Assembly: GCA_964529025.1 (NCBI GenBank) | Contig: CAZGUZ010000002.1 | Location: 6,885-70,884, forward strand | From: an uncultured Candidatus Saccharibacteria bacterium | Lineage (GTDB): Bacteria > Patescibacteriota > Minisyncoccia > Phycocordibacterales > PALSA-1337 | Reading direction: 5' to 3' | Length of the DNA stretch: 64,000 bases | Shown: one piece after another, positions 2,951 through 61,920 of the stretch | Layout: every line of letters starts with the position of its first letter | Position numbering within the stretch: position 1 is the first letter of the stretch | The notes under the pieces: model-generated | What the model was told of the DNA's origin: nothing | The model's input: only the letters and a program-made list of their open reading frames with translations | The model's database searches: none | Made by a program: the position numbers and the translations under genes

Positions 2951-4972
2951 ATGACAACAGAAATAACACAAACAAAGACAGACGGAGCAGCATCACATGG
3001 TGCTGGTCACAACACATCACACCGTGCGCACGGCGCTGGTGCCCATACTGGCCACACAGGTCACGGAGCTCATCGCGGTGCACGCGGCGATCACCGCCCT
3101 CGCCGACCACACCCGCATCATGCAGGTGCAGCAGGTACAGGATTAGGTGGAGCACACCGAGCAGGAGGACATCGACCAGCCGGAGCACGCAATGCTCGTG
3201 GCGGTAATCGTATGCGCCGCGGTATGGACAGACCAAGCTCAACACCGATTGATACTCAAATTCACAAAAAGGTTGAGGATATTATTCCAGCAATTGGCGA
3301 CAATATTCGTATTATTCCCCTTGGAGGAGTAGAAGAAATCGGTAAGAACATGACAGCCATTGAATACGGTAACGACATTGTTGTTATCGACATTGGTTTT
3401 CAGTTTAAAGATGAAAACACTCCTGGTATCGACTACATTCTTCCTAACACTAAATACCTTGAGGAGCGACAGGACAAGGTACGTGCAGTAATTATTACTC
3501 ACGGCCACCTTGACCACATTGGAGGTGTTCCTTATGTAATGCCACGTATTGGTAATCCACCACTCTATACTCGAAACCTTACTTCGGTTCTGATTAAGAA
3601 GCGACAAGATGAGTTTCCTCATATGCCACCTCTTGATATTAAAATCGTCGAGAAAGATGAGGTGATTCGCATTGGTGATCTTAAGATTAAATTCTTTGCA
3701 GTAACTCACACAATTCCTGATGCTATGGGAGTTATTGTTGAAACTCCTTATGGTTCAATTGTTCACACAGGTGACCTTAAGCTTGATCACGTTAATGGTA
3801 TTCCAACTGATGAAGAAAATGCCGAGTACGAACGAGCTTTCAAAAATGAAAAGGTTCTTTTGCTCATGGCAGACTCTACTAACGTAGAAAACCCAGGATT
3901 CTCTATGCCCGAAAAGCAGGTGCATAAGAATATTGAAGAAATTATTCGAACAGTAAAAGGCCGCCTTATTATTGCAACATTCGCATCTCTTCTTGAGCGT
4001 ATGCTTAAGATTGTTGAGTTTGCTGAAAAATATGGCAAGAAAGTTGTTGTTGAAGGTCGCTCAATGAAAACCAACATTGAGATTTCAATGAAGTTGGGAA
4101 TCCTTAAGCCAAAAAAGGACACCCTCATTACCGTTGATGAAATGGATAACTATCCGCCTGAACGAATTATTATTCTTGCTACAGGTGCTCAAGGAGACGA
4201 ATTCGCAGCCATGATGCGAATGTCAAACAAGACGCATAAGTATGTAAAGATCAATAAGCGAGACACGATTCTTTTGTCATCGTCTATTGTTCCTGGTAAT
4301 GAACGATCAGTGCAGCGACTTAAAGATAACCTTTCTCGACAAGGAGCTCACATTATTCACTACAAGATTGCCGATGTCCACTCTTCTGGACACGCAAACC
4401 GCGATGAAACAGCTTGGATTCACAAAAAGGTAAATCCTAAGTTCTTTGTTCCAGTTCACGGTTACCACTACATGCTCCGCGTTCATGGAGACATTGCCCG
4501 CGAAGCAAATAATCTTCCTGAAGACAATGTGATCATTCCTGATAACGGCTCAATTATTGAGATCCAAGAAAAAGGTACAAAGATTGTAAAGCTTAAAGAA
4601 AAGGCTCCATCAGGTATTGTTATGGTTGACGGTTTCTCTGTGGGAGACATTCAAGAAGTGGTGATTCGAGACCGCCAAATGCTTGCTCAAGATGGTATCT
4701 TTATTATCTTCGGTATTGTTAATGCTCAAACAGGAAAGCTCAAGAAGTCGCCTGACATTATTTCACGAGGCTTCGTTTATTTGCGCGAATCGCAAGAGCT
4801 TTTGCATCAAGCACGAACTATTATCAAAACAACTATTGATGAAGGTTCACAAGGAATGAATCCAATTAACCTTGATTATGTTAAGAATGAAATTACTGAC
4901 AATGTAAGTAAATTCCTCTTCCAAAAGACAGCTAAAAGACCAATTGTTATTCCGGTGCTCTTAACGGTATAA
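2951..4972 (+). CDS. rnj: Ribonuclease J (metallo-beta-lactamase/beta-CASP RNase) with a ~115-aa His/Gly/Arg-rich N-terminal extension
   Basis: Carries the HGHLDHIGG metallo-beta-lactamase motif and the IIPLGGVEEIGKNM start of the catalytic core typical of RNase J. The N-terminal ~115 aa is a low-complexity H/G/A/R-rich tract encoded by a locally GC-rich segment (~2990-3240). Confidence 0.85.
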   Translation: MTTEITQTKTDGAASHGAGHNTSHRAHGAGAHTGHTGHGAHRGARGDHRPRRPHPHHAGAAGTGLGGAHRAGGHRPAGARNARGGNRMRRGMDRPSSTPIDTQIHKKVEDIIPAIGDNIRIIPLGGVEEIGKNMTAIEYGNDIVVIDIGFQFKDENTPGIDYILPNTKYLEERQDKVRAVIITHGHLDHIGGVPYVMPRIGNPPLYTRNLTSVLIKKRQDEFPHMPPLDIKIVEKDEVIRIGDLKIKFFAVTHTIPDAMGVIVETPYGSIVHTGDLKLDHVNGIPTDEENAEYERAFKNEKVLLLMADSTNVENPGFSMPEKQVHKNIEEIIRTVKGRLIIATFASLLERMLKIVEFAEKYGKKVVVEGRSMKTNIEISMKLGILKPKKDTLITVDEMDNYPPERIIILATGAQGDEFAAMMRMSNKTHKYVKINKRDTILLSSSIVPGNERSVQRLKDNLSRQGAHIIHYKIADVHSSGHANRDETAWIHKKVNPKFFVPVHGYHYMLRVHGDIAREANNLPEDNVIIPDNGSIIEIQEKGTKIVKLKEKAPSGIVMVDGFSVGDIQEVVIRDRQMLAQDGIFIIFGIVNAQTGKLKKSPDIISRGFVYLRESQELLHQARTIIKTTIDEGSQGMNPINLDYVKNEITDNVSKFLFQKTAKRPIVIPVLLTV

Positions 4973-26596: not shown

Positions 26597-29500
26597 TTAT
26601 CGTGAATTCAATATCTTGCGAGTATTTACTCCGACATATCCTCGCTGATCCAAACCATTTTTCTTTTGGAGTTCAATAACTGCTGCTTTAGTTTTTTCTC
26701 CATAATATCCAGTTACAGGACCTGCATAAACACCGAGTTCAATGAGTCGCTTTTGAAGCTCTTCTACTTCAGAATTCTCCATGCCGAATTCCAAAAAGTT
26801 TTTAAACTCAAATCGAGCACTCTGCTGTGGAATTTGCGGAACCACTTGTGGCACAGTCTGGGACTCAATGTTTTGAGGTGCTGGTACTGAAACTGGGTTA
26901 GAATCTCCTGAAATAATAGTATTGAGCAATTCGCGAGTTAATGGACCAACTGTACCTACACTTGGTAAGCCGTATTGCTTTTGCAATTCCCGTACACCGG
27001 CCAGAGTTTTTATTCCAAAGAATCCTGTTGGTGGCACATCTATCATTCCCCTTTCAAAAAGAATTGCTTGAAGCTGTCGAACTTCGGTACCGATAGAACC
27101 AACACTAAGTTGTTGTGTGAATGTTCGTGGATTATTAGATGATATTCCCTGAGAAGAATTTTGCTGACTTGTATTTGGTAGCACAGTTACAGCTGGGGTC
27201 TGCACTGATGCTGGAGTTCTTCCTACATACGTTCTACTTGATCCGCCACCGCGACGCGAAGATCTCGCGGTTGGCGTGGCTGGCGCTTCTACGGCTGGTG
27301 CAATTTGTGTTGTAAATGTCTCAATTGAAGACGTAGCTTCATTCGCATATGCATCTAAGCTTAATACTCGATAGTAGTATGTTGTACTTGCAATAAGACT
27401 CGACAAAGTTACGCTATGTGATGTCACCAACGAAGAGCCAAGTGTCGACAAAGAACCTAGACTTAATGTTGTTCCGTATTCAACCTGCGAATCCGAAGCC
27501 TCATCAGTCGTCCAAGTAATGAGAGCAGCTGTCGAACTCGTACTTGTCGCATTAACACTACTTATAATTGGACTCGTAAGATCTGCCGTAAGGTTTAATA
27601 GTGTCGAGACGGTGTTGGCATTTCCTGCTAAATCTGTATATGTAGTTGTGCCTAGGACAAGATTCATTGCACCTTGTGCAACCGGTGCCACATTAAATGT
27701 GTACACACTTTGAGAAGTTGTAGCAAATGACCCCACAGTTCCGTTTGTCACTGAGATATCATGTATTCCAAAAGTATATATATCACTTACACCCGTAACA
27801 GTGACAGTTGTTCCCGAAGATCCAACGGTACTCTGCCCAGCAGTAAGAGCAGCAGTTGGAGCTGTAGTATCAACAGTAACTGTTGTTGCACTTGAAGTTG
27901 CACTATAATCTGATCCAACTTGTTGCACTGCCGAAATTGCATAACTACCATCAGATAATGCTGATGAAGTAATTGTCCAAGTACCACCAGATTCTGAAGC
28001 AGAGCCAATGAGCGTACTACCCCCTTGATACAAATAGACCGTTGCAGAGGTTGATGCTGTACCCGTAAATGTTGGAGTCGTATCATTTGTAACTCGGTCA
28101 GAATTTGAAACCCCGGAATCAGAGGCCGAAGAAAGTGTCGGTGCAGCAAGTGTAGCTACAATTGCTTGAGTAGATGTTCCAGCGAGCGTTGTAATTGTTG
28201 TTCCACTTGATGTTGCAGTATTACCTGATGCATCCACTGAGACCACTCGGACATAGTACAAAGTACTTGTTGCAAGATCACCCACGGTAATATCATGCGA
28301 CGTGACCAAAGAAGGATTAAGTGCGGAAAGTGTTCCATAGCTCAAAGTTGTACCGTACTCCACTCGAGATGTAGCAGCCTCATCAGTTGTCCATGTAACT
28401 CTAATATTTGTTGTTGCTGTACTTGTAGCAGAAAGACTTGAGACAACTGGCGGTGTCGTATCAGCAACCTCACCCGTACCCACTACTGCCGAGTTTGTTG
28501 TTCCTGAACCTGTAACTGTCTGCACCTTGTAGAAATATTGTTGGCCAGTCTGAACATCGAAAGTGTCAACAAAACTTTCAGTGGTTGAGCTTAAATATTC
28601 AGAAACTACATTCTGCGTAAATATATTATTTGTTGCGCGCACTAAATACACATCGGCAGAAGTTGGCTCATTATTGTCCCATGTAACTGTCACAGTATTA
28701 CCCACTCGATTCACCGCAACATTAGTTGCAGCATCTGGACCATCGGTTGTTGGGAATTCAGTATCAAGATCCCAACTTGATTTCCATGGAATAGTCATAA
28801 TGGTACCTGTACCCATAGTAATTGGTAGCCAAACATGACGAGAACCGTACAATGAACCATTGTTTACATCGGTATAATTAAATCTATCTCCCATATAGAT
28901 ATAACTTCCTGCTCGGCCTGGAATTTCAAGAATATGTGTTGTCTGTGATCTAAAAGCAAGTGTATAGTCTTCTTCTGCACTTGGAAGGAATGGGTTAACA
29001 CGAGTTGACCATGTGCCAAGTACACCAGTTGTCGATGTTGCATACGTGTTCATGTTTGGAGCCCAACCTGAAAGTCCCGAGGTCACCAAATAGTGAATAC
29101 CGTTTCTGATAAACATAGCTGGGGCTTCGCGACCATTGTGGTTAGCTGGGTTTAAGAATGTTTCTGTAGTACCAAGATAATCATCGGTGAGCAAAGAGAT
29201 AAAGAACTTTGTATTGATACCGTTTGAATAAAGCACATATGCTTTACCATCAGCATCCTTAAAGAGGTTCATGTCGTTGAGACCTTCTCCATTTGGATTG
29301 TATGTTGTAGAAAAAATGGTAAATGGACCCGTTGGATTATCTCCGTATGCAATAAAAGCTCGAGAGTTTGGATAACTAATCACATTGTGACCCCACATAA
29401 CATACTTACTTGTTGTGGCATTGTAAATCACGTGTGGTCGCTCAATAATATGCAATCGTCCTCCGTAAACAATTGGTTGTTCTTCGGTCCAGTTCAAAAG

Positions 29501-32500
29501 ATCGTTTGATGAATATACCGAAACGCCCACAGCTTCGATTTCTGGACTATCAGTATTCATAATTTGACCGTACCAATAGTACTTACCGCGTGTGTACAAA
29601 ATGTTTCCATCGTGTGACTCGATAAGGCGACTGTTCATGTCGTACCAATCACCCGCTGGGAAAAATCTTCGCTCAATAGAAATTCGAGCAGTCACTGAAG
29701 GTTCAGACACAAAGTAGTCCCCACCAACATTACTTACAGCAATAGCAATAACTTGTGTTGTTGTAGCGACTCTAAAGGGACCTGTATACAATTGCGTTGT
29801 ACCTTGTGGCATTCCACCACTAAACACCGGTGTTGTACCATCGGTTGTGTAGTACAAAGTTGCATCAGTTGTTCGACTCGATAGTCGTACACGAATTGGG
29901 TCACGATAATATCCTCCTCCTGGAGAAACTCGTGGTGCTACAGGAATAAACGGTGACGATGTTCCTGCAAGACCGATGATTTTAAATTCTGCAAGGTTTG
30001 CACTTGAATAGTCAGCGGCAACTAATCGTAGATAACGGTAAGCCTGGCCGCCACTATCAACAGGAACTTCTGTCACATGACGCTGTGGAAAGTATGGTGG
30101 TGTATATGGTGTTGTACTTGCAACCGTATGAATAACTGTCCAAGGACCAGTCGTTGAACTTACGTTAGATCCTTGAAGCTGAACTCCATATACTCGGGCT
30201 GTATATCCACGACGTGGAGCTAAGCCAATTGCTGTAGGAATAAATGCTGCTTTGGCGTCAACGCTGGCATAAGCACCAGAAACTGTTGCAGAGTCCCACC
30301 ATGTTTCAACATTGTTATCGTAGAGCTTTGCATAGGTGTTTCCACTGTTAAGATAACTTCCTGCGGTTCCGTTTTGATATGCGGGGTGAACATATAACTG
30401 AACCTCTCCATCAACATCAGCCAAAGGACATGCTGCTGTCGTAAATGAACGAGTTGTACCGTAGCGCGTACCGGCGACGTTTGTTGCATATGCACGATAG
30501 AAATATGTTGCTCCACATGCTAAATCACCTGTAACGGTCGTTGTTGCAAAGTCACCAACTCCAGACGTGCCTAAAATTGTTGATGTCGCGCCGAACGTTG
30601 TTGTGATACCGTATGCAATTCCTCGAGCTGTCGTACTTGCTCCACCATCAGATGTTACTGATCCTGCAAGTAATGCTCTAAAAGCATATACCGTTGTTGA
30701 GGCTAAAGTTGTTACTGTTGGTGCAACCGAGTTAAGTACAGTTACGTTAACTGCAGTCGATGTTGCTCTATTACCTGCAATATCTTGAACTGTGGCCGAA
30801 AGTGTGTGTGCGCCATCTGTTGTTGTGAGAGAGTTCCATGTAATTGAATATGGCGATGTTGTACCCGATGAACCAATAGGAGAACCATCGAGATTAAACT
30901 GAACTGACGTTACCCGAACATTGTCAGTTGATGTTGCTGTAAGTGTAACTGAACTGCCGACAAGTGTTGCCCCAGCAGCTGGAGCTGTCATAGTAACAGC
31001 TGGTGCAATTACATCCGCAAGAACTGTTATTGATGTTGTAGCCGAACTTAACGGGTCTGTAATAATTAAAGTTCCCGTTGCTGAACCAGCATACAATACA
31101 ATTGATGCTGATAAAGAGTCAGCAACACTTTGTGACTGAATTGCCGCACCGTTTCCACCAGTTACCGTAAATGTTGGTGTTCCAGGAGTTCCTGCTGTCC
31201 AACCCGTAGCATTACCTGTCAAAGAAATGCTGGATGTGGCACCTTGCATTATTGTTGTTGTGCTTGGCGTAATCGTAATAAGCGAGTTATTAACATTAAC
31301 CGTAATTGTAGTTGAGGCCACATTACTTGATGCATCTGTCGCAATGGCTTTAATGGTGTGTGTACCGTCTGAGTAACCTGTAGTATTCCACGTAACACTA
31401 TGGGGCGACGTTCCACCAGCACTGCCAACTTGCACCCCATCAACCTGAAGAACAATTGAGTTGAGCAAAACATCATCAGTTGATGAAGCTGTAATTGTTA
31501 CACTACTACCAAGAACTGTAGCATCCTGAAGTGGTGCTGTAATTTCTACCTGAGGAGCAGTTGTATCAGCAGAAAGTGAAAAATCGGCAGTTGCGGTATT
31601 TGATGTCGAAGAACCTGCCGCTGTTATTGTTCGAATTCGATAAAAATAACTTGTATCATTGGTGATATCTGGATCATTCAAAGATAATGTTGTTGAGCCA
31701 AGCAACAATGCTCGCAAATTTTGTGTAAAGTTTATATTTGTAGCTCGCTCAAGGTAGTTATCAAAGGCAGTACCGTTGGTGCTCCATGAAAGATCTACCG
31801 AGAGGCCATTTTTAACACCCACCAAACTTGAAACAGCCGTTGGTGGGGTCGCTGTAACGAAGAATGAATCGAGGTTCCAACTTGAATACCACGAAATAGA
31901 CATAGTATTTACTGTTGGAAACGTAATTGGCAGCCATACAAACCTTGAGTTATACAGTGAACCTGTTGCATATGCTGAGTTATCAAAGCGATCACCTATA
32001 TATACAAAACCATCTGTTCTACCTTCAACTTTAAGTACTTCACTTGGCTGTGAAGCAAAGCCGGTCGAATTATCAAAAAGACTACTACTCTGAAATGGAT
32101 TCACTGGATACGAGTACGTACCGAGTGGGGACGAAGACGTCGAGTACTTTACTAGTGTATGTGCAAAAGTTGCACTGGTACTTGCTGTCATCAAATAATA
32201 CACATCACCGTACCTAAACATTACCGGCGTTGCTCTGTTTGCAAGCGCGGCCACGTTAACAAAACTACCTTGAGGCGACAAATAGTCGCTGCTCAATTGA
32301 GCAACAACGATACGTGTTGTGTCCGAAGAAGCATGAGCAACGTAACCGGTTCCGTTATTATCTACAAACAAGTCGAGATCGTTATTTCCAAAGCCACTAA
32401 TATCAAGGCGTGTATTATAAACCCTGAAAGGACCGTACGGTTTTGACGATGTGGCAACCATAGCTCTACCCGCAGAAGCATTTCGAGCCCACATAACATA

Positions 32501-33589
32501 GGTACTACTTGCAGCATTGTAAATCACACGAGGGCGAGTATATCTAATACTTGAAGAAGCTATCATAAAGCCTTCATACTTCCAGTTTAAAAGATCGTTT
32601 GATGAATATGCGACGATTCCACCAAGTTCGACTTCTGGCGTACTATTGTTATACGACTCTCCATACCAATAGTATTTACCGTCCAAATAACTGATACCTC
32701 CCGTGTGTGCATCAATAAGCTGGCCACCATTTACATTCCTCCACTCATTTCCCGGGGTAAAGTTGGGTGCAATATAAAAATATGCAGGATCAGAAATTTC
32801 TGAAGAATTTGTGCCACCAAGCACCGCTATTGCTTTAATAGTTGTAGTTGCCGTACTCGTAATTAAGAATGGGTATGTATACGCCTGCGTGGTTCCCTGT
32901 GGTACTCCTGCTGTAACAACAGGGTTTGTTCCGTCAGTTGTATAGTACAAAGAAGCATCCGTTGTAAGACTTGCTAAGGTTACCAATGTTGATGTTGCAT
33001 AACGACCACCATGAGGAGTAATCGTTGGTGTTACAGGCGTGTACGGAGTACTACTTGAAGCAATACCAATCATGCGCAACTCTGCCACCGAACCATAAAA
33101 GTTATTCTGAGTTAATACTCGATAGTAGCGGTAATACTGGTTTCCCGTATCAATAGAAATTTCATTGAGCTGCTTTTGCGGATAATACGGTGGCATACTT
33201 GGTACCGTATAAATTGTTGTCCATGGTCCGGTTGATGAACTTACATTGGCACCTTGAACTATTGCCCCTACAAGTCGCGGAACATAGCCCAAACGCGGTG
33301 CAATTCTAATTTTTGTTACTTTTGCAGCCGACAAAAGATCAAGGCCTACGTATCCTTGCGCAACCGAAGAGTCCCAGTGAGTTGTAAGGTCACTATCAAA
33401 TACCTTAGCAATCGTGTTGCCGTTATTACCAAAACTTCCCGCCGTACCAATCTGATACTGTGAGGCAATACTAAATTGAACTTCGCCCGTAGCGGCATGG
33501 ACCAGAGTCGGAGTTGTAGCAAAACAAAGAGCACTGTAGAGTAGCGCAACAAAAAATACTGGGGTCAGCTTGTTCACCAGACGATACAT
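26597..33589 (-). CDS. Giant (~2330-aa) secreted multidomain protein: 2x [F5/8-type C (discoidin) + GH43-like 5-bladed beta-propeller], FN3/Ig-like repeats, 2 C-terminal peptidoglycan-binding (PG_binding_1) domains
   Basis: Signal peptide at MYRLVNKLTPVFFVALLY. Discoidin-like segments read NTIAKVFDSDLTTHWDS and NTYAKLYDNNVETWWDS. Propeller signatures read DGKYYWYGE..SSNDLLNWK and RGKYYWYGQ..SSNDLLNWT. The C-terminus has two LQ..L...G.....G.FG..T..AV..LQ PG-binding repeats. Confidence 0.8.
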   Translation of the reverse strand: MYRLVNKLTPVFFVALLYSALCFATTPTLVHAATGEVQFSIASQYQIGTAGSFGNNGNTIAKVFDSDLTTHWDSSVAQGYVGLDLLSAAKVTKIRIAPRLGYVPRLVGAIVQGANVSSSTGPWTTIYTVPSMPPYYPQKQLNEISIDTGNQYYRYYRVLTQNNFYGSVAELRMIGIASSSTPYTPVTPTITPHGGRYATSTLVTLASLTTDASLYYTTDGTNPVVTAGVPQGTTQAYTYPFLITSTATTTIKAIAVLGGTNSSEISDPAYFYIAPNFTPGNEWRNVNGGQLIDAHTGGISYLDGKYYWYGESYNNSTPEVELGGIVAYSSNDLLNWKYEGFMIASSSIRYTRPRVIYNAASSTYVMWARNASAGRAMVATSSKPYGPFRVYNTRLDISGFGNNDLDLFVDNNGTGYVAHASSDTTRIVVAQLSSDYLSPQGSFVNVAALANRATPVMFRYGDVYYLMTASTSATFAHTLVKYSTSSSPLGTYSYPVNPFQSSSLFDNSTGFASQPSEVLKVEGRTDGFVYIGDRFDNSAYATGSLYNSRFVWLPITFPTVNTMSISWYSSWNLDSFFVTATPPTAVSSLVGVKNGLSVDLSWSTNGTAFDNYLERATNINFTQNLRALLLGSTTLSLNDPDITNDTSYFYRIRTITAAGSSTSNTATADFSLSADTTAPQVEITAPLQDATVLGSSVTITASSTDDVLLNSIVLQVDGVQVGSAGGTSPHSVTWNTTGYSDGTHTIKAIATDASSNVASTTITVNVNNSLITITPSTTTIMQGATSSISLTGNATGWTAGTPGTPTFTVTGGNGAAIQSQSVADSLSASIVLYAGSATGTLIITDPLSSATTSITVLADVIAPAVTMTAPAAGATLVGSSVTLTATSTDNVRVTSVQFNLDGSPIGSSGTTSPYSITWNSLTTTDGAHTLSATVQDIAGNRATSTAVNVTVLNSVAPTVTTLASTTVYAFRALLAGSVTSDGGASTTARGIAYGITTTFGATSTILGTSGVGDFATTTVTGDLACGATYFYRAYATNVAGTRYGTTRSFTTAACPLADVDGEVQLYVHPAYQNGTAGSYLNSGNTYAKLYDNNVETWWDSATVSGAYASVDAKAAFIPTAIGLAPRRGYTARVYGVQLQGSNVSSTTGPWTVIHTVASTTPYTPPYFPQRHVTEVPVDSGGQAYRYLRLVAADYSSANLAEFKIIGLAGTSSPFIPVAPRVSPGGGYYRDPIRVRLSSRTTDATLYYTTDGTTPVFSGGMPQGTTQLYTGPFRVATTTQVIAIAVSNVGGDYFVSEPSVTARISIERRFFPAGDWYDMNSRLIESHDGNILYTRGKYYWYGQIMNTDSPEIEAVGVSVYSSNDLLNWTEEQPIVYGGRLHIIERPHVIYNATTSKYVMWGHNVISYPNSRAFIAYGDNPTGPFTIFSTTYNPNGEGLNDMNLFKDADGKAYVLYSNGINTKFFISLLTDDYLGTTETFLNPANHNGREAPAMFIRNGIHYLVTSGLSGWAPNMNTYATSTTGVLGTWSTRVNPFLPSAEEDYTLAFRSQTTHILEIPGRAGSYIYMGDRFNYTDVNNGSLYGSRHVWLPITMGTGTIMTIPWKSSWDLDTEFPTTDGPDAATNVAVNRVGNTVTVTWDNNEPTSADVYLVRATNNIFTQNVVSEYLSSTTESFVDTFDVQTGQQYFYKVQTVTGSGTTNSAVVGTGEVADTTPPVVSSLSATSTATTNIRVTWTTDEAATSRVEYGTTLSYGTLSALNPSLVTSHDITVGDLATSTLYYVRVVSVDASGNTATSSGTTITTLAGTSTQAIVATLAAPTLSSASDSGVSNSDRVTNDTTPTFTGTASTSATVYLYQGGSTLIGSASESGGTWTITSSALSDGSYAISAVQQVGSDYSATSSATTVTVDTTAPTAALTAGQSTVGSSGTTVTVTGVSDIYTFGIHDISVTNGTVGSFATTSQSVYTFNVAPVAQGAMNLVLGTTTYTDLAGNANTVSTLLNLTADLTSPIISSVNATSTSSTAALITWTTDEASDSQVEYGTTLSLGSLSTLGSSLVTSHSVTLSSLIASTTYYYRVLSLDAYANEATSSIETFTTQIAPAVEAPATPTARSSRRGGGSSRTYVGRTPASVQTPAVTVLPNTSQQNSSQGISSNNPRTFTQQLSVGSIGTEVRQLQAILFERGMIDVPPTGFFGIKTLAGVRELQKQYGLPSVGTVGPLTRELLNTIISGDSNPVSVPAPQNIESQTVPQVVPQIPQQSARFEFKNFLEFGMENSEVEELQKRLIELGVYAGPVTGYYGEKTKAAVIELQKKNGLDQRGYVGVNTRKILNSR

Positions 33590-33625
33590 ACATACAGTAT
33601 AACACCGGCAAAAGCTCAACGGGGC

Positions 33626-34174
33626 TTATTTATTCACATTTTCTGAGCGTGAACACCAGAGTGTTAGCCCAATACCAACTAAAACAATAAGGAGTGCAGC
33701 AAAGTAGGTAATACCAGCAATTTGATCGGTGTACTCAAGGATTCCAAACATAGAAAAAAGAGTGTTCCAGTCATGTTCAACACTATCTCCTCCAAGCAAT
33801 GGCAGCACCATTCTTTGTGCATCACCCATGTATACTGAGACCTCAACCAAACTCTGCCCCATCCACATAATTATAATTCCCGAAGAATAAAATTCGCGCT
33901 TCAGAAAAAAGTATCCTGCAATAACGAGCGGAACAATAACTTGCATTGCTGATCCTGCAATAAAGTGAATAAACTTTCCAAAGAAAGCTGCTAGTGTATG
34001 CCCTGCTTCATGGAAAATAAGATTAACGGTACTTATAATATGAAATTCTTGTGGTGTTTGTATGGCGTATACAATGTATACAATAGCAATAAGTGCGCCG
34101 ATAAGCTTTCCGTAATGGATTCGTGCTGAATACTCTTGTTCTATTGCTCTATATATAAATGAGACGGCATTCAT
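33626..34174 (-). CDS. Small polytopic membrane protein with an HExxH motif (putative membrane metalloprotease-like)
   Basis: Contains IFHEAGHTLAAFFG within hydrophobic helices. The start is assigned to the internal Met (MNAVSF), because the longer GTG-started ORF would place a terminator hairpin at 34222-34243 inside coding sequence. Confidence 0.45.
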   Translation of the reverse strand: MNAVSFIYRAIEQEYSARIHYGKLIGALIAIVYIVYAIQTPQEFHIISTVNLIFHEAGHTLAAFFGKFIHFIAGSAMQVIVPLVIAGYFFLKREFYSSGIIIMWMGQSLVEVSVYMGDAQRMVLPLLGGDSVEHDWNTLFSMFGILEYTDQIAGITYFAALLIVLVGIGLTLWCSRSENVNK

Positions 34175-34207
34175 ATACTTATTATACACGAGGTCGTACC
34201 CCTCGTG

Positions 34208-34243
34208 GTCAGCAAACAAAAAGGCGCCCCCGAAAGGGCGCCT
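34208..34243 (-). terminator. Rho-independent terminator (minus strand) ending the GC-rich unit
   Basis: The minus strand reads aggcgccctttcgggggcgcct followed by ttttgtttg, a 9-bp GC stem with a U-run. Confidence 0.6.
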
Positions 34244-34510
34244 GTGCGATCGCATAATAGCGATCACTGGCCATTTGCTGGATCCTGCGGTGGATCTCCA
34301 GCTTGATCCGTGTCAGAAGGCTGTTCTCTGCAGCCACTTGGACTCCAAGTAACAGTGCCGTCACCGGCACCATTTGCTTCCCCTGAGCGACTCACCCCGA
34401 CAATCACGGGATTACCCCAGGGTGTAACTGGTTGAACAGGAAAATTTTCCATACTGCACTTAGAGTACACCCGCAAATTAAAAGTAGCAACTGTGCACAT
34501 TTAGGTATGA
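34244..34510 (-). ncRNA. Candidate structured RNA / leader (unclassified), or alternatively a 78-aa Pro/Gly/Cys-rich ORF (34264..34500)
   Basis: A ~270-nt segment with locally high GC is bounded by a near-consensus promoter and a strong terminator on the minus strand. It contains several GC hairpins, including GUGCCG-GUGA-CGGCAC with a GNRA loop. No SD precedes the ORF start, which lies only ~10 nt from the predicted TSS. Confidence 0.3.
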
Positions 34511-34516
34511 TAAGCC

Positions 34517-34544
34517 TCTATACGGTATACTTACCTCATGTCAA
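34517..34544 (-). promoter_or_regulatory. Sigma-70-like promoter on the minus strand (TTGACA-16-TATAGA) driving the GC-rich unit
   Basis: The reverse complement of 34517-34544 reads TTGACA tgaggtaagtataccg TATAGA. It overlaps the start codon of the divergent plus-strand flavoprotein gene. Confidence 0.45.
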
Positions 34545-35815
34545 AAGACTTTGATATTCTCATTGTGGGTGGCGGACCGGCTGGAATGATGGCTGCTATT
34601 AGTGCTCGCGAGCATGACCCAAATGGAAAGCTCCGTATTGCCATCCTCGAAAAAAATGAAAGTCTTGGTAAAAAACTCTTAATTACCGGAGGTGGTAGGT
34701 GCAATGTTACCAATGCGCAATTTGATAATCGAAAGCTCCTCGAAAAGTTTGGCGAGGCTGGAAAATTTTTATTCTCGACATTTTCTGAATGGAATTCAGA
34801 AGACACAATTAACTTTTTTAATGGCCGTGGCCTTGGTACAAAAATAGAAAATGAATTACGCGCTTTCCCTATCACTGATTCTGCACAATCTGTATGGAAT
34901 GTTCTTGTGCAAGAATTAGCAATTAAGAAAATTGAAATTATAAGCAATACTCCCGTTACAAGAATTGAGCGTGCTGAAAATGACACTTATTCAGTAACCT
35001 CAAAAAATGGCACAATTTTTACAGCTCATAAAGTTATTCTTGCTACAGGAGGGACATCTCGGCCCGAAACAGGCTCAACTGGTGATGGTTATGCTTGGGC
35101 AAAAAAGCTTGGCCATACAGTTCATACGCCAATACCCTCTTTGGTTCCACTTAAAATTAAAGATTCTTGGATCAAAGATGTTGCTGGGGTTTCACTTCCT
35201 TTGGTTAAAATTACTACGATTCAATTTGATAAAAAGTGTCAGAGTGTTAAAGGAAAACTACTCTTTACCCACGTTGGCGTTAGTGGCCCTACCATTTTAA
35301 ATATGAGCAAGCATGTTGGTGAGCTCTTAGGTTATGGTGATGTCATTATTGAGCTCGATCTTGTACCTGAACTTGATTACGGAAAGCTCAACCAAAAACT
35401 TCAGGATGTTTTTAAAGTGAATTCAAATAAAATGTTTAAGAATTCACTTGGTGATATTGTTCCAACCACTTTAGCTCCTATTATCGTAAAGCTTTCGGGC
35501 ATTAATCCCGAAGTTCAATGTAATAGTGTTACTCGCGAGGAGCGCCTACATTGCGTTAAAGTTTTGAAGCATCTTCAAATTACGGTTGACTCTTTGCTCG
35601 GCACCGACAAAGCAATTATTACCAGTGGAGGAGTTGAACTTACCGAAATTGATTTCAAGAAAATGGAATCCCTCAAAAATCCTGGCCTCTATATTATTGG
35701 AGATATGCTCAATATTAACCGCCCTTCAGGTGGATACAGTCTTCAGCTTTGCTGGACAACAGGCTTTGTTGCTGGGCAACATGCAGCTACACAGGCTCTA
35801 CTTCTCAAGGTCTAG
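34538..35815 (+). CDS. HI0933/BaiN-family FAD-dependent oxidoreductase (aminoacetone-oxidase-like flavoprotein)
   Basis: The N-terminus FDILIVGGGPAGMMAAISA (GxGxxG) is followed by ITGGGRCNVTN, characteristic of the HI0933-like family. Confidence 0.75.
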   Translation: MSKDFDILIVGGGPAGMMAAISAREHDPNGKLRIAILEKNESLGKKLLITGGGRCNVTNAQFDNRKLLEKFGEAGKFLFSTFSEWNSEDTINFFNGRGLGTKIENELRAFPITDSAQSVWNVLVQELAIKKIEIISNTPVTRIERAENDTYSVTSKNGTIFTAHKVILATGGTSRPETGSTGDGYAWAKKLGHTVHTPIPSLVPLKIKDSWIKDVAGVSLPLVKITTIQFDKKCQSVKGKLLFTHVGVSGPTILNMSKHVGELLGYGDVIIELDLVPELDYGKLNQKLQDVFKVNSNKMFKNSLGDIVPTTLAPIIVKLSGINPEVQCNSVTREERLHCVKVLKHLQITVDSLLGTDKAIITSGGVELTEIDFKKMESLKNPGLYIIGDMLNINRPSGGYSLQLCWTTGFVAGQHAATQALLLKV

Positions 35816-61755: not shown

Positions 61756-61826
61756 GCTGCGGGGCTTGGACTCGAACCAAGATTCTACGCTCCAGAGGCG
61801 CATGTCCTACCATTAGACGATCCCGC
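61756..61826 (-). tRNA. tRNA-Gln (anticodon CUG)
   Basis: The reverse complement UGCGGGAUCGUCUAAUGGUAGGACAUGCGCCUCUGGAGCGUAGAAUCUUGGUUCGAGUCCAAGCCCCGCAG folds as a cloverleaf. It has U1-A72 and discriminator G (bacterial tRNA-Gln identity), U8, a GG in the D-loop, anticodon loop CU-CUG-GA with U33, a 5-bp T-stem CUUGG/CCAAG and a UUCGAGU T-loop. CCA is not encoded, and there is one A-C mismatch at the base of the acceptor stem. Confidence 0.8.
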
Positions 61827-61920
61827 AAAATTTTGTTATGCCTTATTACTGTACTCGCTATAACAATGTGCCACAAATAATACCTTAAAATGGGGTAAAA
61901 AGGAAGAGTGCGCCAAGTCT

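Follow-up and report, generated by a model that had tools for sequence, protein, structure and literature searches.

Is the GC-rich, hairpin-rich unit between two divergent genes of this genome a structured RNA, or does it encode a small protein? The window that we analyzed (the whole stretch of DNA, 64,000 nucleotides from an uncultured Saccharibacteria bacterium) contains a membrane-protein gene with an HExxH motif on the same strand as the unit and, on the other side of the unit, a divergent flavoprotein gene that encodes an FAD enzyme of the HI0933-like / aminoacetone oxidase family. The earlier note had described what lies between them as a candidate for a new structured RNA or a riboswitch-like leader, or else as a tiny Cys/Pro-rich protein. 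We give a probability of roughly 85% that 34264-34452, on the minus strand, is a small protein-coding gene that is transcribed on its own and that a structured RNA can be excluded; this assessment comes from comparing sequences. The gene encodes an uncharacterized, lineage-restricted protein of Saccharibacteria. The features of the locus are listed in Table 1.

Table 1. Features of the locus, with positions as numbered in the window.
Feature	Position	Strand	Details
Predicted small protein-coding gene	34264..34452	-	62 codons plus TGA stop at 34266-34264; product MENFPVQPVTPWGNPVIVGVSRSGEANGAGDGTVTWSPSGCREQPSDTDQAGDPPQDPANGQ, 62 aa, pI about 4, which includes the stretches NPVIVGVSR and SGEANGAGDGTVTWSPSGCR
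5' extension of the ORF	34453..34500	-	public gene calls: 78-aa version, from ATG 34500
Candidate promoter, preferred	34462..34490	-	TTGCTA (34490-34485), 17 nt, TACTCT (34467-34462), 9 nt, ATG 34452
Promoter proposed in the earlier note	34517..34544	-	TTGACA (34544-34539), 16 nt, TATAGA (34522-34517)
Hypervariable island	about 34267..34520	.	small gene plus promoter; sharply bounded
Hairpin GUGCCG-GUGA-CGGCAC	34370-34355	-	GNRA loop; helix 8
Hairpin ACUUGG-AGU-CCAAGU	34350-34336	-	
Hairpin GGCUG-N7-CAGCC	34335-34319	-	
Hairpin GGAUC-N8-GAUCC	34309-34292	-	
Stop-codon hairpin	34246..34267	-	GUGAUCGC-UAUUAU-GCGAUCGC; core GAUCGC-UAUUAU-GCGAUC at 34265-34248; UGA in the 5' arm; helix 15
Intrinsic terminator	34213..34243	-	AGGCGCCCU-UUCG-GGGGCGCCU then UUUUGUUUG; stem 34243-34222 with 9 pairs (7 of them G-C) plus a T-run; from the terminator scan
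Putative -10 of the downstream membrane-protein gene	34172..34186	-	TG + TATAAT (34186-34181), 6 nt, ATG 34174-34172
-10-like sequence of the flavoprotein gene	34526..34531	+	TATACT, 6 nt before ATG 34538-34540

For our comparisons, we recovered variants of the locus from related Saccharibacteria contigs, seven at the DNA level and nine at the protein level. The DNA variants that we compared with the window allele are L001, L081, L087, L100, L101, and L103. One of these, L087, was retrieved by tblastn with the peptide (E = 3e-9); it is a homolog at the protein level, and the DNA there is near saturation. A profile search yielded nine proteins of 61-82 amino acids (E = 1e-11 to 1e-28), and an HMM search of 1.84 billion representative proteins added one true relative, P0123. 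We rejected the other seven matches from that search as evidence of homology; they are short, G/N/D-rich, and lie in repeat proteins of mixed families, and repeated motifs had boosted their scores. A metagenome scan with the peptide profile returned only a contig that was already known, and a viral scan with the same profile gave no match. When genome contigs were scanned for the flavoprotein, L001 was the only close relative; the other 79 loci were from distant Bacillota and similar organisms, and the element was absent from them. Similarly, distant homologs of the membrane protein have neither the small ORF nor the flavoprotein nearby. Thus far the family is tiny and found in one Saccharibacteria clade only. 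At all of its loci, the small gene and the membrane-protein gene are in the same order and on the same strand. The small protein had no matches in Pfam, in NCBIfam, or among the PDB sequences.

The reading frame of the small gene is conserved across these variants. The +1 sense frame contains no stop codons in 7/7 variants, and the other two sense frames contain 1-6 stops each. On both strands, every other frame is closed in at least one variant. The frame stays open despite nucleotide divergence of 45-55%. Insertions and deletions inside the ORF are of 6+3, 3, and 33 nucleotides and hence in frame; those outside the ORF are of 2 and 5 nucleotides. Gene callers agree that there is an ORF here, as it is called by those of NCBI, ENA, JGI, and Logan.

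The substitutions also have the pattern expected of a coding sequence. In the true frame, pN/pS is 0.25-0.75 (0.41-0.75 between allele classes and 0.25 for L087-L103), versus 0.65-1.46 for shifted-frame controls; the one exception is L100-L101, at 0.95 on 16 differences. Within the small ORF, pN is 0.26-0.46 and pS is saturated at 0.59-0.78, and dN/dS between the window allele and the others is 0.12-0.36. Third codon positions have the most differences: by codon position, the counts are 13/19/30 for the window allele and L001 and 6/8/18 for L087 and L103. The earlier note had favored a structured RNA or riboswitch-like leader, and what the homologs show is codon-periodic conservation, a result that the note itself had named as refuting that reading.

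Translation of the small gene probably begins downstream of the annotated start. The ATG at 34452, which is Met17 of the annotated 78-aa ORF, is conserved among the homologs. The region that corresponds to the 5' extension is closed by an in-frame TAA in L100 and L101 and by a TAA 7 codons upstream in L087, and in the alignment of the variants, substitutions in the extension have no codon periodicity. The extension is probably untranslated and would house the promoter instead, and the public annotation of the gene probably starts 16 codons too early. As described previously, the 78-aa ORF has no Shine-Dalgarno sequence, and we found none upstream of ATG 34452 either. The earlier suggestion of a tiny Cys/Pro-rich protein was right about the protein and about the proline, but the product contains just one cysteine and, with the start at Met17, has 62 amino acids instead of 78.

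Counted from the conserved start, the nine protein variants have 61-67 amino acids. The protein is acidic and rich in Gly, Pro, Val, and Asp. The N-terminal two-thirds is conserved in the nine-variant alignment, and the acidic C-terminal tail, after W36, is variable. A core motif, P-W/F-x-D/N-P-V-x-x-G-...-A-N-G-x-x-x-G-T-x-x-W, persists despite saturating synonymous divergence, and P, V, G, A, N, G, G, T, W, and D residues are invariant in all alleles. AlphaFold2 gave a low-confidence model (pLDDT of 52.5, with only 3 sequences in the input). The product is probably largely disordered.

The coding sequence also accounts for the composition of the unit. As the earlier note had observed, the unit is GC-rich: from 34223 to 34422, the GC content is 0.595, compared to a mean of 0.411 (standard deviation 0.048) for 200-nt intervals, and only one peak in the 64 kb is higher. 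GC1, GC2, and GC3 of the small ORF are 0.68, 0.58, and 0.37, and GC3 in four neighboring genes is 0.29-0.31. The GC-richness lies in the first and second codon positions, and it arises from the amino acid composition (Gly, Pro, Val, Ala, and Asp) rather than from RNA structure. Another GC peak of the window corresponds to the N-terminal extension of RNase J. In an AT-rich genome, a small ORF that is rich in Gly, Pro, and Ala can by itself produce a GC peak that comes with hairpins and a terminator. Computing GC by codon position exposes such coding peaks quickly, and the RNase J peak teaches the same lesson.

The small gene and its promoter lie in a sharply bounded, hypervariable island. Relative to L100 and L101, identity per 60-nt interval is 48-65% in the island and about 95% in the flanks. 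In the same vein, pS is 0.75 and pN is 0.35 in the small ORF, as opposed to 0.13-0.22 and 0.011-0.019 in the flanks. The island has diverged beyond the synonymous sites of the flanks, and no part of the locus is less conserved in nucleotide sequence than the body of the ORF. Where peptides share about 50% identity, the membrane proteins and flavoproteins next to them share 96-98%. The relationships among allele classes are incongruent with those of the flanks, and P0131 is an apparent intragenic recombinant, with the N-terminal half of P0130 joined to the C-terminal half of P0002. We considered and rejected two mechanisms for generating this diversity. The island does not appear to be the target of a diversity-generating retroelement, as blastn of 34205-34545 against the whole window found no second copy that could be a template repeat. 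Nor is it a cassette bounded by repeats, as no repeats flank it.

Such divergence raises the question of whether the ORF is non-functional or decaying, in a fast-evolving and recombination-prone spacer, and is open merely by chance and composition. The divergence of the island beyond flanking synonymous sites is what this explanation would predict. Also, dN/dS reaches about 0.95 for L100-L101, in allele class D, albeit from 16 differences; here, selection seems to be positive or else constraint is weak. The lack of a known domain, the low-confidence structure, and the narrow distribution point the same way. Against this, chance would have to have kept the frame open in every variant, and every indel in frame, at 45-55% divergence, and pN remains well under the saturated pS. 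The L087-L103 pair behaves as an ordinary constrained gene would: pS in the ORF is 0.38, which is the same as in the flanks, and dN/dS is 0.25. Furthermore, the invariant residues, a promoter, and the terminator are retained in every allele. We consider decay to be improbable.

The TTGACA-16-TATAGA promoter that was proposed previously is indeed in the sequence, but it was not in the list from our consensus scan because TATAGA lacks a T at position 6. Its TTGACA overlaps the start codon of the flavoprotein gene, on the opposite strand. Its -10 is replaced by unrelated sequence in L100 and L101, and its -35 is altered in L087 and L103. We prefer another candidate, TTGCTA-17-TACTCT, which is closer to the ATG. 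Both hexamers are kept in L001 and L081 while the spacer varies. The equivalent in L100 and L101 is TTGCTG or TTGCCG, 17 nucleotides, TATTCT, 10 nucleotides, and the ATG, and this lies within an island of roughly 50% identity. At the level of consensus matches, transcription from this promoter would start a few nucleotides before the ATG and would give a leaderless or near-leaderless mRNA, which would explain the missing Shine-Dalgarno sequence.

This arrangement is common in the window. A TAnnnT motif is found 4-11 nucleotides before the first ATG in 24 of 48 genes (the background rate is 17%), and just 6 of the 48 have a motif like Shine-Dalgarno (background of 10%). The membrane-protein gene is one example: TGTATAAT-N6-ATG or TATACT-N6-ATG is kept at 7/7 loci. 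The earlier note had suggested that the unit could be a cis-regulatory leader for this gene. That idea fits poorly with a conserved -10 of the gene's own, 6 nucleotides before its ATG.

At the other end of the unit, the strong intrinsic terminator reported earlier is well supported. It is present, with its T-run, in 7/7 variants, it is fully (100%) paired in the close variants (helix 16), and six of its pairs have compensatory double changes in L087 and L103. The 3' end of the predicted transcription unit was correctly placed there. Just upstream is the stop-codon hairpin, whose stem is invariant in five variants with a variable loop (UAUUAU, UCAA, or AAUA). L103 and L087 have another short hairpin in its place, or none at all.

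The position of this hairpin suggests another explanation: the ORF might be a translated leader, or attenuator, in which translation through the stop-codon hairpin modulates the terminator and read-through into the membrane-protein gene, and the peptide itself is unimportant. The stop codon is in the 5' arm of a conserved hairpin and 2 nucleotides upstream of the terminator stem; the conserved gene order, on one strand, at all loci is also as an attenuator would require, and parts of the peptide are poorly constrained. But RNAalifold on the seven variants found no conserved anti-terminator pairing, and the stop-codon hairpin is not kept in L087. At 62 codons, the ORF is long for a leader peptide, and it has no run of regulatory codons. 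The core motif is under purifying selection, which would not be expected if the peptide were irrelevant. Finally, the membrane-protein gene would not depend on read-through if it has its own -10 just before its ATG. An attenuator thus seems very unlikely to us.

The last alternative is a structured non-coding RNA that either stands alone or, as a riboswitch-like leader, controls the membrane-protein gene through its terminator. We confirmed the perfect hairpins that had been noted, with GUGCCG, GGAUC, and GAUCGC stems. In the window allele, the ORF contains 5 perfect hairpins of at least 5 base pairs, compared to 1.1 on average in dinucleotide shuffles (P = 0.002-0.007). The six homologous alleles have 1-2 perfect hairpins each, which is not significant, so we rejected the excess of hairpins as a property of the family; it is peculiar to the window allele. 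Pairing in the GNRA hairpin (helix 8) is disrupted in L100/L101 and in L087/L103. In the closest alleles, this hairpin and helix 6 still pair by way of wobble changes, which for the hairpin are G-U changes seen in both L001 and L081. From the sequence one can draw GGAUC/GAUCC/GGAUCC pairings that exclude one another, but the alternative GGAUC/GAUCC pairings are lost in the homologs.

The folding energy of the whole unit is low for its composition (z = -3.6), mostly because of the 3' end, with the terminator and the stop-codon hairpin. The 73 nucleotides from the stop codon through the terminator have z = -3.0, the ORF alone has z = -2.0, and the 5' 90 nucleotides have z = +0.8. Across alleles, the ORF alone has z = -2.0, -1.5, -2.5, and -1.1, and the predicted shapes differ. 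Across the seven variants, RNAalifold retained the terminator, the stop-codon hairpin, two weak helices, and nothing else; the structure conservation that a novel RNA would need was not there. Helices 2, 7, 12, and 13 of the minimum-free-energy structure of the window allele are 33-67% paired in three close variants.

Rfam did not identify a known RNA. At gathering thresholds, the only hit in the 64 kb was a tRNA (61757-61827), and no family matched the unit. A local scan of the unit with permissive filters gave STnc100 (25.5 bits, versus a threshold of 47), DapZ (22.2 versus 56), Atu_C8 (14.2 versus 50), and Atu_C9 (9 versus 40), all below gathering; the alignments for STnc100, DapZ, and Atu_C8 rest on the terminator hairpin. 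The nucleotide conservation of the ORF body, lower than anywhere else in the locus, is the reverse of what a structured RNA should show. So, although the local GC peak, the whole-unit z-score, the hairpins of the window allele, and the shared strand with the downstream gene would suit a structured RNA or leader, a z-score that is carried by the terminator, hairpins that are absent or broken in all six homologous alleles, coding signatures throughout the unit, and the downstream gene's putative -10 at its start codon make it extremely unlikely.

Returning to a small protein-coding gene as the preferred reading, we can ask what its product might do. The divergence of the gene next to nearly identical flanks makes it a candidate determinant of interaction or conflict between strains, on evidence that is evolutionary only. 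With low confidence, we suggest that the protein may take part in an interaction that is strain-specific or exposed to conflict, such as an association with the envelope or surface, or as a processed peptide. Different alleles would then be maintained by diversifying or balancing selection, together with recombination. In its most specific form, this is a rapidly diversifying new small protein, perhaps with a motif like half of an SLH domain, whose recombining and distinct alleles serve strain-specific interaction; that is a tentative proposal, and we would not bet on it. If it is true, candidate roles include association with the envelope or with the host bacterium, a target of phage pressure, or a processed signal or competition peptide that is handled by the adjacent HExxH membrane protein. 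Either way, an episymbiotic bacterium with a reduced genome would have a polymorphic locus that resembles a pherotype or an antigen. To our knowledge, very few determinants of strain-level interaction or conflict have been described in Saccharibacteria.

How does the locus compare to known systems? At first sight, it resembles genes for small RNAs or the leaders of terminator riboswitches: it is a GC-rich unit of ~250-300 nucleotides between divergent genes, with a strong terminator. It differs from them in having no match in Rfam, in that only the 3' hairpins are structurally conserved, and in being conserved at the protein level.

Leaderless mRNAs have been described in Actinobacteria, Deinococcus, and archaea. 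The small gene and both of its neighbors resemble these, with a -10-like hexamer 6-10 nucleotides before the start codon and no Shine-Dalgarno sequence. The L087/L103 lineage departs from this pattern: about 17 nucleotides separate a -10-like TATAAG or TATAGG from the ATG, and in L087, GAGGA is found upstream of the equivalent ATG. A literature search for leaderless genes or SLH domains in Saccharibacteria returned nothing directly relevant.

The conserved part of the protein resembles the beginning of the SLH domain (PF00395). Residues 4-36, F-x(7)-W-x-x-P-V-x-x-G-V-x(3)-G-x-A-N-G-x-x-D-G-T-x-x-W, align in register with the SLH start, F-x-D-V-x(4)-W-x(9,10)-G-I-x-x-G-x-x-D-G-x-F-x-P. Using hhalign against 4 SLH repeats from solved structures, we obtained a probability of 84% (P = 7e-6) over just the first 33 of about 53 positions, versus at most 12% for 40 column-shuffled controls. 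(Another comparison gave 95%, but it was biased because its templates had been selected by the query itself.) SLH proteins were also among the weak matches of the exhaustive HMM search. The other weak matches there were to the unrelated repeat families SprB, FG-GAP, and Big_1, which implies that the similarity to SLH is partly a generic G-x-x-N-G-x-x-D-G-T motif. Furthermore, hmmscan of five variants against Pfam, with E up to 10, found no family, including SLH, and a HMMER profile did not match the PDB sequences, which include the SLH proteins 3pyw, 6cwc, and 8bz2. Unlike SLH proteins, the small protein lacks the second half of the domain with its TRAE motif and has the variable acidic tail instead; it has a single copy rather than the usual three tandem repeats; it has no visible signal peptide or hydrophobic N-terminal segment; and the SLH helix is not in its AlphaFold2 model. 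We view the resemblance to the first half of SLH as a weak lead and not as membership in the family.

Finally, polymorphic loci for small peptides are familiar from the Firmicutes, namely the pherotype loci comC, agrD, and comX and the bacteriocin/immunity loci. The small gene is not accompanied by a co-variable sensor kinase, a dedicated exporter, or a modifying enzyme; its neighbors are conserved, and its acidic product of 61-67 amino acids lacks a double-glycine or other known leader. What it shares with those loci is a short ORF in a bounded island, discrete allele classes between conserved flanks, an incongruent phylogeny with recombinants, and a protein whose N-terminal part is conserved and whose C-terminal part is variable.

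The earlier note read 34205-34545 on the minus strand as a candidate structured RNA or riboswitch leader, with a tiny protein as the bracketed alternative. We found that the underlying observation is real. The local GC content reaches 0.595 at 34223-34422, a peak that only one other stretch of the window exceeds (window mean 0.411, sd 0.048); the hairpins that had been named are present where they were placed; a terminator scan detected the stem at 34243-34222 and its T-run; and the whole unit folds better than shuffled sequences (z = -3.6). The RNA interpretation is not supported, and the small-protein alternative is correct.

Layout of the locus and examples of leaderless-looking gene starts (positions in the window)
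Feature	Position	Strand	Basis
Divergent flavoprotein gene, start	ATG 34538	+	sequence
Spacer, flavoprotein start to small ORF	85 nt	read on -	sequence
Small ORF, 62 codons and stop	34452-34264	-	
Stop-codon hairpin, GUGAUCGC-loop-GCGAUCGC, UGA within the 5' arm	34246-34267	-	
Two hairpins, then T-run, 3' of the small ORF		-	sequence
Membrane-protein gene, 182 aa, contains HEAGH	ATG 34174	-	sequence
ORF of 2340 aa (surface protein), directly downstream of the membrane-protein gene	26597-33619	-	
Leaderless-looking starts, examples	5076 (+), 7450 (-), 17933 (-), 24386 (-), 25685 (-), 34174 (-), 34538 (+), 42752 (-), 55933 (-)		

To find homologous loci, we searched species-representative genomes with the flavoprotein, an HI0933-like / aminoacetone oxidase family FAD enzyme. 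This gave one close locus, L001, from an uncultured Candidatus Saccharibacteria metagenome-assembled genome (94% amino-acid identity of the flavoprotein). This match also shows what kind of organism the window comes from. A protein search with the annotated 78-aa ORF showed that assemblies in NCBI and Logan already carry it as a predicted protein with no name, and found one relative that is 58% identical. Looking up contigs, searching again with a profile of the peptide, and following membrane-protein homologues added more variants, for a set of seven distinct DNA variants (the window, L001, L081, L087, L100, L101, and L103) and nine protein variants. Scans of metagenomes and viruses found nothing further.

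Gene order is constant in all variants, with the flavoprotein upstream and divergent and the membrane protein downstream. Neither Pfam nor NCBIfam matches the membrane protein. It is widespread among candidate-phyla-radiation (CPR) bacteria, and its distant homologues have different neighbours, without the small ORF. The 2340-aa ORF has large duplicated modules, Ser/Thr-rich repeats, and C-terminal segments resembling peptidoglycan-binding domains (putative); it is also found at loci L083, L100, and L088, and L081 and L087 have other genes in its place.

Of the frames on both strands, only that of the small ORF is free of stops in every one of the seven variants; the remaining two sense-strand frames have 1-6 stops in each. 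Gaps in the DNA alignment are of 3, 6+3, and 33 nt within the ORF, versus 2 and 5 nt immediately outside it. Differences are concentrated at the third codon position (13/19/30 at positions 1/2/3 between the window and L001, and 6/8/18 between L087 and L103), and reading the same alignment in shifted frames raises pN/pS from the 0.25-0.6 of the true frame to 0.65-1.46. A core motif of the protein persists in L087 and L103, whose DNA is hardly alignable: P-[WF]-x-[DN]-P-V-x-x-G-[VA]-x(3)-[GA]-x-A-N-G-x-x-x-G-T-x-x-W. All of these sequence tests of coding versus structural RNA favour coding.

In the small ORF, GC1 is 0.68, GC2 is 0.58, and GC3 is 0.37, close to GC3 in the neighbouring genes (0.29-0.31). 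The first two codon positions carry the excess, so the GC peak stems from an abundance of Gly, Pro, Val, Ala, and Asp in the protein. Another GC peak, at 3022-3221, is the highest of the window (0.665) and lies inside the gene for an RNase J family protein (2951-4972, plus strand). It corresponds to a low-complexity, His/Gly/Ala/Arg-rich N-terminal extension of ~118 aa; the TIGR00649 match covers residues 119-670. This extension is a second case of amino-acid composition making a GC peak.

Tests for structured RNA were negative for the unit, apart from its 3' end. At gathering thresholds, cmscan found only a tRNA in the whole window (61757-61827), and no Rfam family in the unit. A permissive local search gave four sub-threshold matches (STnc100, DapZ, Atu_C8, and Atu_C9); alignments were printed for the first three, and all of these sit on the terminator hairpin. 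Fold z-scores for the ORF only were -2.0, -1.5, -2.5, and -1.1, with shapes unrelated to one another, and the 3' hairpins scored -3 to -5.4. When the minimum-free-energy structure of the window was imposed on three close variants, 84% of cells were paired, versus 82.6% in shuffles, and several helices were broken. RNAalifold on the seven variants kept only two weak helices, the stop-codon hairpin, and the terminator, where double changes compensate at six pairs. The GNRA hairpin is kept in L001 and L081 solely via third-position transitions; in L100/L101 and L087/L103 its pairing is disrupted. The window allele does have more perfect hairpins than shuffles (5 versus 1.1 expected, P ~0.005), all of 5-6 bp and within 90 nt of the ORF (34281-34370, minus strand). 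The six other alleles show no such excess, with 1-2 each, elsewhere in the sequence. Templated quasi-palindrome mutation is a possible source of the hairpins in the window allele.

Conservation does not include the annotated start, ATG 34500: the 5' extension that it adds (34453-34500, minus strand) varies without codon periodicity, and is stopped in L100, L101, and L087. ATG 34452 is common to all variants and gives products of 61-67 aa. The public proteins P0001, P0002, P0130, and P0131 are 78-82 aa and begin with MCTVATFN; public gene calls probably place the start of the small ORF 16 codons too far upstream. The extension overlaps conserved promoter hexamers (TTGCTA-17-TACTCT-9-ATG, with a variable spacer), and hexamers of this type are kept even in L100 and L101, amid unrelated surrounding sequence. 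The promoter proposed in the earlier note, TTGACA-16-TATAGA at 34544-34517, is in the sequence, but a consensus scan misses it owing to the final A of its -10, and TATAGA is lost in L100/L101. Promoter assignments at this locus are predictions from conservation.

The absence of a Shine-Dalgarno sequence is no argument against translation of the small gene, because SD-like motifs are at background across the window: 6 of 48 long ORFs have one, near the 10% background. A TAnnnT hexamer lies 4-11 nt before the first ATG in 24 of the 48, versus 17% background. Many such starts have gGTATAAT or TGTATACT, then 6 nt, then ATG, and both neighbours of the small gene belong to this group (TATACT-6-ATG and TATAAT-6-ATG). 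Gene starts in the window appear to be leaderless; our literature search found no paper that reports leaderless starts of this type in Saccharibacteria.

At the 3' end of the small gene, the stop-codon hairpin is followed by a conserved intrinsic terminator, and the membrane-protein gene beyond it has its own -10 element at its start. In five variants the stem of the stop-codon hairpin is invariant and the loop is variable; GCGATCGC occurs once in the window. This hairpin could act on mRNA 3' stability, termination efficiency, or translation termination.

The sole remarkable property of the small gene is its allelic hypervariability. Compared with L100/L101, the window has nearly the same flanking genes: amino-acid identity is 97-98% for the flavoprotein (pS 0.20-0.22) and 96-97% for the membrane protein (pS 0.13-0.19), and the flanks are ~95% identical per 60-nt window. 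In the variable island, which runs from ~34520 to the stop codon, most 60-nt windows are only 48-57% identical and those close to the stop codon 63-65%; the small ORF has pS 0.75 and pN 0.35. Relaxed constraint alone is insufficient, because this divergence exceeds what neutral sites in the flanks allow. The window has no second copy of the element and the island has no flanking repeats, which speaks against retroelement-type (templated) diversification and against a cassette bounded by repeats.

By its flanks, the window is nearest to L100/L101, and L001/L081 are further off (pS 0.49 for L001), yet the 5' part of the island is nearly identical to L001/L081 and so is incongruent with the flanks. 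P0131 looks like a recombinant allele: its N-terminal half resembles L001 and its C-terminal half L081, with the junction at the conserved GDGTV core. Metagenome assembly GCA_013573075.1 holds both window-type and L081-type alleles (contigs L082 and L086, with flanks ~85% identical). Within allele classes the results differ: between L100 and L101, the small ORF has pN 0.086, versus 0.010-0.024 in the flanks, and pS below the flanks; L087 and L103 show the ordinary pattern of a constrained gene (pS 0.38, equal to the flank; dN/dS 0.25). We infer that the island has the pattern of loci under diversifying or balancing selection with recombination. Elsewhere at the locus, a 60-nt segment of the flavoprotein gene (34976-35035, plus strand) is less conserved than the rest of the gene in every pairwise comparison (identity 0.73-0.77 with the close strains L100, L101, L001, and L081, and 0.48 with L087), and the 2340-aa surface protein is likewise locally variable in its N-terminal region (33476-33535, minus strand).

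The locus encodes a small, uncharacterised protein that is restricted to its lineage. The protein is acidic (pI ~4) and hydrophilic, with no evident signal peptide or transmembrane segment; searches of Pfam, NCBIfam, and PDB sequences gave no match to it, and its AlphaFold2 model is of low confidence. An exhaustive HMM search found one additional true relative; the other matches were weak and in repeat proteins of several unrelated families, including SLH. The second half of the SLH domain is missing from the small protein, and the resemblance may serve as a lead only: in profile-profile comparison with SLH repeats from solved structures, residues 4-36 align with SLH positions 1-33 (probability 84%, P 7e-6, versus at most 12% for column-shuffled controls).
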